Source: Escherichia phage Turkey5 | Reading direction: 5' to 3' (one strand) | Sequence record: PQ471516.1 | DNA: 64,000 bases | Shown: piece by piece, positions 1,739 to 2,043 of the stretch | Layout of the letters: every line of letters begins with the position of its first letter | Numbering within the stretch: position 1 is the first letter of the stretch | The notes under the pieces: model-generated | The model's input: only the letters and a program-made list of their open reading frames with translations | Told to the model about the DNA's origin: nothing | Databases searched by the model: none | Program-made: the position numbers and the translations under genes

Positions 1739-2043
1739 GGGCCATTAGCTCACGGTGGTTAGAGCAAACGACTCATCGACAATGGTGACTTTCATCAGTA
1801 ATGGTGATTGAAAAACTGGATGAATTCAGGGAAATCTTAACACGTAATGGTGATGACAATCCTGAGCCAAGCCCAATAAGCGTATTGGGAAGGTGCAGAG
1901 ACTAGATGGTACAGTACGTTCTTACTGTGTAATACATCATTAGCGTCCGGCATCCCTATGGGATGATGATATAGTCCGTACTATTGTGAAAACTATAGAT
2001 TATACGAATCGTTAGGTACTGTGTTCGACTCACAGATGGCTCA
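1739..2043 (+). tRNA. tRNA-Met-like (anticodon CAU) interrupted by a ~230 nt intron in the anticodon loop
   Basis: 5' half 1739-1776 (acceptor GGGCCAT, D-arm GCTC..GAGC, anticodon stem AACGA, loop CTCAT); 3' half 2007-2043 (AA, TCGTT, T-arm CTGTG-TTCGACT-CACAG, acceptor ATGGCTC). Confidence 0.6.
1777..2006 (+). ncRNA. group I self-splicing intron (no ORF inside)
   Basis: Core elements in canonical order: P AATTCAGGGAAA (1823-1834), Q AATCCTGAGC (1858-1867), R GTGCAGAGACTAGA (1883-1896), S GATATAGTCC (1968-1977); ends in G before the 3' exon; boundaries approximate. Confidence 0.65.

Follow-up and report, generated by a model that had tools for sequence, protein, structure and literature searches.

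A group I intron splitting the anticodon loop of a CAU tRNA gene, probably tRNA-Ile2, in Escherichia phage Turkey5

What interrupts the tRNA gene with anticodon CAU at positions 1739-2043 of a 64,000-nucleotide (nt) stretch of Escherichia phage Turkey5 DNA (sequence record PQ471516.1; the whole of this stretch is referred to as the window), which tRNA does the gene specify, and by what route did the phage come to carry the insertion? The gene was found to consist of two exons, 1739-1776 and 2007-2043, separated by 230 nt (1777-2006) of which the last is G2006. The 5′ half, GGGCCATTAGCTCACGGTGGTTAGAGCAAACGACTCAT, has its last base at 1776 with the anticodon CAT at its end, and the 3′ half runs from 2007 on as AATCGTTAGGTACTGTGTTCGACTCACAGATGGCTCA, also given as AATCGTTAGG...GATGGCTCA. 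These boundaries agree to the base with those that the first-pass annotation, a note made from the letters alone, had put at about 1776 and about 2007 with some 230 nt ending in a G between them. The 230-nt element is a canonical group I intron in a tRNA gene and is real, its sequence, structure, boundaries, homology and distribution being directly established. We consider it highly probable that the locus as a whole represents a phage tRNA, likely tRNA-Ile2, which is split between positions 36 and 37 by an IA-type intron without an open reading frame (ORF), and which is predicted to be spliced and to decode AUA codons. The split gene comprises:

1739-1776, plus strand: 5′ exon of tRNA(CAU), with the 5′ strand of the acceptor stem, the D arm, the 5′ strand of the anticodon stem and the loop bases CUCAU (anticodon CAU at 1774-1776)
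1777-2006, plus strand: group I intron of 230 nt, ORF-less, with its omega-G at 2006; RF00028 match of 95.1 bits, and covariation among homologues
2007-2043, plus strand: 3′ exon, with A37 and A38, the 3′ strand of the anticodon stem (UCGUU), the variable loop, the T arm, the 3′ strand of the acceptor stem and the discriminator A

When the exons were joined, ARAGORN returned a cloverleaf of 76 nt with anticodon CAU, in which CCA is not encoded by the 3′ exon and the intron lies between tRNA positions 36 and 37, directly after the anticodon. The boundaries were determined by enumerating all splice-site pairs in which the 5′ exon ends in U and the intron in G, putting the joined exons to ARAGORN and accepting only tRNAs whose anticodon loop contained the junction; a single tRNA solution was obtained for both the window and its closest relative, with exon 1 ending at U1776, a 230-nt intron and anticodon CAU. 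The junction GACTCAT/AATCGTT (the slash marks the site of the intron) is identical in the intronless alleles of phages WPEC5 and RaK2. In its default mode ARAGORN missed the split tRNA, finding six other tRNAs in the window, and in its intron mode it called a tRNA-Arg(ACG) with an intron at 1774-2003, shifted by 3 nt in the 5′ direction. This call was discarded on two grounds: it implies an intron with a terminal U rather than G, and the intronless homologues read CTCATAA. Across the collected loci the intron mode yielded many false introns that merely joined adjacent tRNAs, and it was replaced by the U...G enumeration.

That a group I intron sits in the anticodon loop of a CAU tRNA, as had been proposed at first pass, was borne out by the covariance-model score, by covariation, by the boundary rules and by the existence of intron-minus alleles. 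The match to the Rfam group I intron model RF00028 exceeds by far the gathering score of 50 (E = 3e-23, model positions 1-253) and is the sole one within the 64 kb, and homologous introns score 90-108 bits. The cmscan alignment is sound from P3 to P9, its 5′ end falling upstream of the tRNA as an artefact of the model's handling of P1 and P2; the helices were derived by hand and tested on a MAFFT alignment of 18 homologous tRNA(CAU) introns. The helices, all on the plus strand, are as follows, with percentages given in paired alignment cells (MFE, minimum free energy):

1773-1788: P1, exon UCAU and intron C1 (1773-1777) with the guide GGUGA (1784-1788); 98.9% paired
1792-1807: P2, hairpin UCAUCA-GUAA-UGGUGA with a GNRA loop; all six pairs compensatory, recovered by the MFE fold
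1816-1822 with 1944-1950: P3; 94.4% paired, three pairs with double changes
1825-1866: P4, 1825-1831 with 1860-1866, enclosing P5; 99.2% paired, almost invariant
1837-1856: P5; 69% paired, alignment uncertain
1867-1893: P6/P6a hairpin; 97-100% paired, six pairs compensatory
1900-1904 with 1972-1976: P7, GACUA with UAGUC, the guanosine-binding helix; invariant and 100% paired in the 18 sequences
1905-1938: P7.1/P7.2, an extended hairpin of 34 nt between P7 and the 3′ strand of P3 (P3′); recovered by the MFE fold
1951-1965: P8 hairpin; 97.8% paired, four pairs compensatory
1981-1998: P9 hairpin with a GAAA tetraloop; all six pairs covary

The P/Q and R/S pairings recognized at first pass are real and correspond to P4 (TTCAGGG at 1825-1831 with TCCTGAG at 1860-1866) and P7 (GACTA with TAGTC), respectively. 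P7 and P3 are pseudoknotted, and the conserved J8/7 sequence GAUAUA precedes the 3′ strand of P7. In the alignment 87.7% of cells held standard pairs, as compared to 35-42% when the partners were slid by 1-3 columns, double-sided changes were present in 39 of the 68 pairs, and the covariation score of 0.413 (0.150 +/- 0.010 in shuffles) was reached by none of 500 shuffles, the covarying helices being P2, P3, P6, P8 and P9. The U1776·G1785 wobble at the 5′ splice site is U·G in all 18 sequences, and a terminal G is present in all 28 resolved intron copies. The unconstrained MFE fold recovered P2, P3, P4, P6, P7.1, P7.2 and P8, while the two substitutions that separate the intron from its copy in Escherichia virus TH47 lie in the P7.2 loop and in P9, a single U·U mismatch that is A-U in TH47, a pattern in keeping with selection on the structure. 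No endonuclease ORF was found within the 230 nt, the sole overlapping ORF being a spurious one of 69 amino acids (aa) on the minus strand.

A separate observation concerns the octamer AATGGTGA, which occurs three times in the intron, at 1781-1788 (the guide), 1800-1807 (the 3′ strand of P2) and 1846-1853 (the 3′ side of P5). This duplication is common to some bacterial copies of the intron (loci L139, L145 and L160) and is absent in the Klebsiella phages Muenster and OU509535. The 5′ strand of P2, UCAUCA, mimics the exon end CUCAU/C, so that the guide and P2 could swap partners.

Introns of another kind are known from phage tRNA genes, and ARAGORN did offer other boundaries; we nevertheless assign next to no probability to the view that the insertion is a bulge-helix-bulge intron, an intron like those of the Lak megaphages, or one bounded as in the tRNA-Arg(ACG) call. 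Devoto et al. 2019 (PMC6784885) described 'enigmatic' tRNA introns in Lak megaphages, an observation that is repeated in a 2026 jumbo-phage survey; their Table S6 lists these introns as 79-114 nt long with 'no hit in rfam'. The Lak introns are comparable to the present one in being located within or beside the anticodon loop of phage tRNA genes and in varying from one related genome to another. Some of them look like nested tRNAs, whereas here a full group I ribozyme is present in cultured coliphages, and identity with the Lak introns was rejected on their length and the lack of an Rfam match. Insertion at 36/37, rather than at the 37/38 site typical of bulge-helix-bulge introns, of an element that the covariance model and covariation identify as a complete group I ribozyme likewise argues against that type, and the boundaries given by ARAGORN conflict with the intronless alleles.

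With regard to the identity of the interrupted tRNA, bacterial tRNAs with a CAU anticodon fall into three classes. The acceptor stem of the joined tRNA pairs GGGCCAU with AUGGCUC, giving G3-C70, C4-G69 and C5-G68, and its D stem pairs GCUC with GAGC, the pairs A11-U24 and G12-C23 of fMet being absent. According to Silva et al. 2006 (PMC1635315), the presence of G3 or C70 in a CAU tRNA excludes Met and fMet, both of which possess C3-G70, the combination of A11-U24 and G12-C23 marks fMet, and tRNA-Ile(CAU) often has C4-G69 and C5-G68, which the TilS enzyme of E. coli needs. Among 5,426 E. coli genomes, the phage tRNA best matches a gene that is annotated as tRNA-Ile and has a CAT anticodon. AUA accounts for 20.3 per 1000 codons, or 30% of isoleucine codons, in 33 long phage ORFs, as compared to roughly 4-5 per 1000 in E. 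coli, and given such heavy use by the phage a phage-borne tRNA-Ile2 makes biological sense. The split tRNA is thus probably a tRNA-Ile2, which would read AUA following lysidine modification. Of the first-pass label 'tRNA-Met(CAU)-like' the CAU anticodon stands, while Met is probably wrong in view of the Ile2 discriminators and the best E. coli match. An elongator tRNA-Met reading AUG, the label given by ARAGORN and by the annotations of WPEC5 and EJP2, we regard as unlikely: any CAU tRNA is called Met by default, and the GenBank 'tRNA-Met' on the intronless alleles is in our opinion the usual default mis-call. The lack of C4-G69 in the OU509535 allele would favour Met, but G3-C70, the two TilS determinants, the tRNA-Ile annotation of the nearest E. 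coli gene and the heavy AUA use of the phage all speak against it, as does the finding that the bacterial homologues bearing the same intron are of the Ile2 type.

These bacterial homologues were retrieved with the pattern GACTCAT, 95-125 nt, AGGTGCAGAGACTAG, which matched 24 bacterial loci and two more viral contigs, L116 and L136, the latter with a large terminase gene. The bacterial loci derive mostly from Betaproteobacteria (Herbaspirillum, Zoogloea, Azonexus, Rhodocyclaceae, Burkholderiaceae, Methylophilaceae and Chitinolyticbacter), the remainder being from Gammaproteobacteria and Cytophagales. All but two of the 24 resolve as Ile2-type tRNAs split at CAT/AA by introns of 222-293 nt with a terminal G. 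The identity of the bacterial introns to the phage intron is 56-73%, the closest being those of L148 (Alteromonadaceae) and L147 at 71-73%, and the guide GGUGAC, the P2 hairpin and a long interval between P7 and its 3′ strand (P7′) are common to both; counterparts of P7.1/P7.2, of differing sequence, are present in the bacterial homologues, where P7 and P7′ are 63-88 nt apart. Judged by sequence, the phage intron is a member of the bacterial tRNA-Ile2(CAU) 36/37 intron family, owing to the same junction, the homology of the introns and their common guide, P2 and core. The 22 resolved loci (within L137-L160, and including Herbaspirillum sp. RV1423, Zoogloea sp. LCSB751 and Alteromonadaceae bacterium Bs31) resemble the phage locus in gene type and CAT/AA site, in a P2 with GNRA loop, an identical P4, J6/7 and P7 core, P7.1/P7.2 and a terminal G, and in being ORF-less. 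They differ in being located on bacterial chromosomes, the present intron being in a virulent jumbo phage's own tRNA gene, in a length that ranges around the 230 nt found here, and in that the phage intron is more AT-rich.

The first-pass annotation had taken the phage to be T4-like, which it is not: Escherichia virus TH47, an Asteriusvirus of 352 kb, shares 95% identity with the locus, and Asteriusvirus jumbo phages such as JNE01, slurp01 and phAPEC6 match a second region 30 kb from it, the two regions alike matching phages of about 350 kb. Matches spanning at least 80% of the intron occur in seven records of a phage collection derived from GenBank. These records are TH47 (99.1% identical), the five Klebsiella jumbo phages Muenster, KP13-7, RCIP0023, phiKp_21 and OU509535 (about 90-92% identical by blastn, with about 88-91% also obtained) and a Vibrio phage with the copy in its terminase gene. 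Muenster and OU509535 have a tRNA(CAU) split at the identical junction (GACTCAT/...G/AATCG), and in TH47 the tRNA exons are 100% identical to those of the window. Of the 30 Escherichia phage records in this collection that match the locus, only TH47 has the intron. WPEC5 possesses the same tRNA in uninterrupted form (92% identical over the whole tRNA), reading ...GACTCATAATCGTT..., and RaK2 (NC_019526; L003:1861-1935) contains an unannotated intronless tRNA(CAU) scoring 57.9 bits with Rfam, between tRNA-Ser and an HNH gene. The intron is present in some members and absent in others of both phage genera, the window and TH47 standing opposite WPEC5 and others, and the Muenster-like phages opposite RaK2 and K64-1. 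Remoter matches come from Vibrio, Twort-like Staphylococcus and Synechococcus phages and are group I introns that all interrupt protein genes. As a side observation, in the Vibrio phages R16F and 1.193.O (L007 and L008) the large terminase gene is split by three or four group I introns of 72-94 bits in Rfam into four or five annotated fragments, which are labelled only as separate 'terminase' coding sequences.

Local comparisons bear on how the intron came to be distributed in this manner. Identity to TH47 (L001) is 99.3-100% over the block 1586-2062, made up of the spacer, the exons and the intron, and lower in the flanking genes (tRNA-Ser 96.7%, HNH gene 93.0%, tRNA-Asn 88.2%), which suggests a recent exchange of just that block. 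OU509535 (L006, 2461-3205) has the intron core of the Klebsiella phages and differs in the P1 loop, P9, the intron termini and both exons, the exons resembling gammaproteobacterial alleles (3′ exon AATCGGCAGGTC); to judge from its sequence, this locus seems to have arisen by recombination in which the exons were co-converted. It is possible, albeit on the doubtful side, that the intron is inherited and not mobile, a jumbo-phage ancestor having captured an interrupted bacterial tRNA-Ile2 gene of which the intronless alleles are later precise losses. Such a history would be in keeping with the long D loop and the GUGUUCGACUCAC T arm of the phage tRNA, with its closer similarity to a betaproteobacterial intron-bearing tRNA-Ile2 (80.8% to L142) than to the E. 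coli gene (75.3%), and with the lack of an endonuclease gene in the intron. It would however require many independent precise losses, as TH47 is alone among the 30 records, and it is at odds with the intron-bearing block being nearer to TH47 than its flanks are, with the recombinant appearance of OU509535, and with the closest bacterial introns (L147 and L148) residing in a different tRNA body.

Downstream of the split tRNA lies a gene that may be involved in mobility:

2063-2767, plus strand: free-standing HNH homing-endonuclease gene, 234 aa, with a C-terminal helix-turn-helix (HTH); phrog_14913 'HNH endonuclease', E = 1.1e-56

This gene starts 19 nt past the tRNA. Pfam recognized no HNH domain in the ORF and gave weak, sub-threshold matches to HTH_7 and HTH_17. 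HNH orthologues adjoin intron-plus (TH47) as well as intron-minus (RaK2 and K64-1) alleles, and a strict coupling of intron and HNH gene, with the RaK2 and K64-1 orthologues beside intronless tRNAs, was rejected. In OU509535 an unrelated HNH_3 endonuclease ORF (E = 4e-19) is situated directly after the split tRNA, and in the viral contig L053 a PD-(D/E)XK gene (PF11645) is found about 170 nt past a split tRNA-Lys (L053, 3464-4490). An ORF-less intron may be mobilized by a nearby endonuclease, as in the collaborative homing of mobE or F-CphI. Autonomous mobility through an intron-encoded homing endonuclease does not apply to the present intron, and the HNH gene of the window is a neighbour and candidate trans-acting mobility factor that may or may not belong to the element; endonuclease-assisted homing of the intron is a plausible inference. 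The free-standing homing endonuclease SegB of T4 likewise occurs in a tRNA region (PMC2330249), the HNH gene here lying beside an ORF-less intron in a tRNA cluster; that it cuts the intronless tRNA allele would be conjecture, its orthologue coexisting with such an allele in RaK2 and K64-1.

Splicing, the lysidine-dependent isoleucine identity and the route of mobility we infer from these findings as follows. The gene would be transcribed along with the neighbouring tRNA cluster, and the intron would fold into its P3-P9 core, with the guide GGUGA and the exon end UCAU forming P1 and its U·G wobble at the splice site. An exogenous guanosine held in P7 would then attack after U1776, following which G2006 would take the place of the guanosine in the binding site and the 3′-hydroxyl of the 5′ exon would attack after G2006, thereby joining the exons. 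The 3′ exon is probably aligned by the 5-bp anticodon stem of the exons (AACGA with UCGUU) and not by P10, by analogy with the Anabaena pre-tRNA intron, for which exon pairing in the anticodon stem is required according to a study listed in PMC3984707. Host TilS would convert C34 to lysidine, enabling the tRNA to read AUA, and the spliced product would serve the AT-rich phage in AUA decoding. Since the intron lacks an endonuclease gene of its own, it would most likely spread by recombination in co-infection, for which a free-standing homing endonuclease, for instance the downstream HNH, may provide the trigger. Concerning transcription, the plus strand has at 1461-1489, 7 nt upstream of tRNA-Ser(GCU), a sigma-70-like promoter that agrees with the consensus at 11 of 12 positions (TTGACT-17-TATAAT, with an extended -10 TG) and could drive a unit of tRNA-Ser, the split tRNA and the HNH gene; taken together, promoter-like sites are no more numerous in this region than expected from shuffling.

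Several points weigh against this interpretation. Folded by itself, the intron has a weak thermodynamic z-score of -1.5, which was excluded from the evidence. P5 and P7.2 are weakly supported in the alignment, with 51-74% of cells paired in P7.1/P7.2, mainly because MAFFT cannot align variable hairpins between the phage and betaproteobacterial copies. P10 is weak, with at most 3 bp (CGA with UCG), and splicing, in vitro or in vivo, is a prediction. The Ile2 discriminators were described for bacteria and may not transfer to phage tRNAs, the OU509535 allele having A4-U69. As the HNH gene is also found beside the intronless alleles of RaK2 and K64-1, its role in intron mobility is at most putative, and conservation of the intron across genera could result from constraint and not from transfer. 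The weak P10 would also fit a decayed, non-splicing relic within a tRNA pseudogene, as would the lack of a tRNA call here in the annotations of TH47, Muenster and genomes related to them. We consider such a relic very improbable, as the model match is full-length and far above threshold, all core helices are intact and show compensatory changes, the U·G wobble and the terminal G are kept in every copy, and the exons are unchanged between the window and TH47; the annotators' miss is explained by default tRNA finders, which allow no group I introns.

Among known introns, that of Azoarcus is similar in that it, too, belongs to group I and interrupts a CAU tRNA-Ile within the anticodon loop. Its guide GUG presumably pairs with CAU, and we take its J6/7-P7 core, AAGGUGUAGAGACUAG, to be nearly the same as AAGGUGCAGAGACUAG here. 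It differs in having no hairpin between P7 and P3′, where the phage intron has the 34-nt P7.1/P7.2. This paired insert, a hallmark of subgroup IA, sets the phage intron apart from IC3 introns, with their compact core free of any insertion between P7 and P3′, and on structural modelling would place it with the IA-type (IA2-like) introns and not with the compact IC3 Azoarcus type. An entry labelled IA2 in Table S of PMC13011429, a 2026 survey, is a tRNA intron whose P3′-P8-J8/7-P7′ string is nearly the same as that of the present intron; the same survey gives 81% of bacterial tRNA introns as IC, with IA-classed tRNA-Ile2 introns in Pseudomonadota. Contig L020 and some other viral tRNA introns are without an insert between P7 and P3′. 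The introns of phage protein genes (T4 td, nrdB and nrdD, Twort, the Vibrio terminase genes of L007 and L008, and cyanophage psbA) are, like this one, of the small IA type, and blastn matches to the Vibrio, Twort-like and Synechococcus phage introns are 74-79% identical over 120-185 nt, all passing RF00028. They interrupt mRNAs, in which splicing competes with translation, whereas here a tRNA is interrupted. The expectation at first pass that a tRNA-interrupting intron would be unusual for a phage accords with a 2014 review, which states that phage introns are all in protein genes, and full-text searches of the literature, in which subscription-only papers were not covered, turned up no description of a phage tRNA gene split by a group I intron.

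The tRNA arrays of large phages seem to harbour more such introns that have escaped annotation, the present locus being one example. An 18-nt core motif, GGAAGGTGCAGAGACTAG, is present in at least 120 IMG/VR contigs, and in nine of the first 120 contigs listed, suggesting a share of about 7%, the intron is inside a tRNA gene, for Thr, Leu, Lys, Asn or with anticodon CAU. Most contigs gave several U...G solutions, the one chosen being that which restores a normal seven-base anticodon loop. The assignments, with tRNA and insertion site, are:

L069: Thr(UGU), 36/37, sole U...G solution
L020: Thr(UGU), 34/35, by eye
L030: Leu(UAA), 34/35, by eye
L053: Lys(UUU), 34/35, by eye
L095, 1926-2227: Asn(GUU), 35/36, by eye
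L116: CAU, 36/37
L129: tRNA and site unassigned
L136: CAU, 36/37
L117, 5522-5813: split tRNA with a related group I intron

All nine introns exceed the Rfam threshold with 65-108 bits (65-92 bits for L020, L030, L053, L069, L095, L117 and L129). The contigs mostly have dense tRNA arrays typical of very large phages, such as the 35 tRNAs in 15 kb on the 436-kb contig L095. Some IMG/VR contigs may be non-viral, a sugar epimerase gene neighbouring the intron in L069, and the two tRNA-Asn(GUU) genes are split at 35/36, a position that recent work has found to be characteristic of Patescibacteria. The junction pattern GACTCATN{6,10}GTGACTTTCA had six matches in IMG/VR, all of them chance matches to unrelated sequence. 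Three split tRNAs are directly followed by an endonuclease gene. That mobile group I introns without ORFs generally find an overlooked niche in large-phage tRNA arrays, where free-standing HNH or PD-(D/E)XK endonucleases move them in trans, is a speculative extension to which we attach a low likelihood. If true, such introns would serve phage-versus-phage competition, with the intron allele immune to cleavage and the tRNA block favoured in inheritance, in parallel to T4 SegB or to the intron endonuclease that nucleus-forming phages possess.

Elsewhere in the window, all on the plus strand, a weak Rfam tRNA (33.3 bits, threshold 29 bits) that is not called by ARAGORN was noted at 479-557, directly after tRNA-Ser(UGA) at 385-474. 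Three tandem paralogous ORFs of 54 aa (582-746, 743-907 and 904-1068), all starting with MTHEEWM and having stop/start overlaps, occupy 582-1068, and this triplet is also annotated in WPEC5, with ORFs of 165 nt. At 4290-4443 there is a tandem pair of tRNA-Thr(UGU) genes, 6 nt apart and of clearly diverged sequence.

For group I introns, bacterial tRNA genes and phage protein genes are both classic locations, and the present locus fills the gap between them, to which the field had explicitly drawn attention. The ribozyme is canonical and its insertion site is known in bacteria; it is notable for its occurrence in phages of E. coli and Klebsiella that are in culture. Split tRNAs of this kind escape standard phage annotation, the intron-bearing copy being unannotated both in TH47 and in Muenster, whose genome paper reports 6 tRNAs and does not mention the intron; phage tRNA inventories, and the codon-usage arguments that draw on them, are therefore incomplete. 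The natural intron-plus and intron-minus alleles make splicing, homing and effects on fitness directly testable, and the link that this locus provides between the bacterial tRNA-Ile2 intron family and phages suggests that phages can carry tRNA introns between bacteria.

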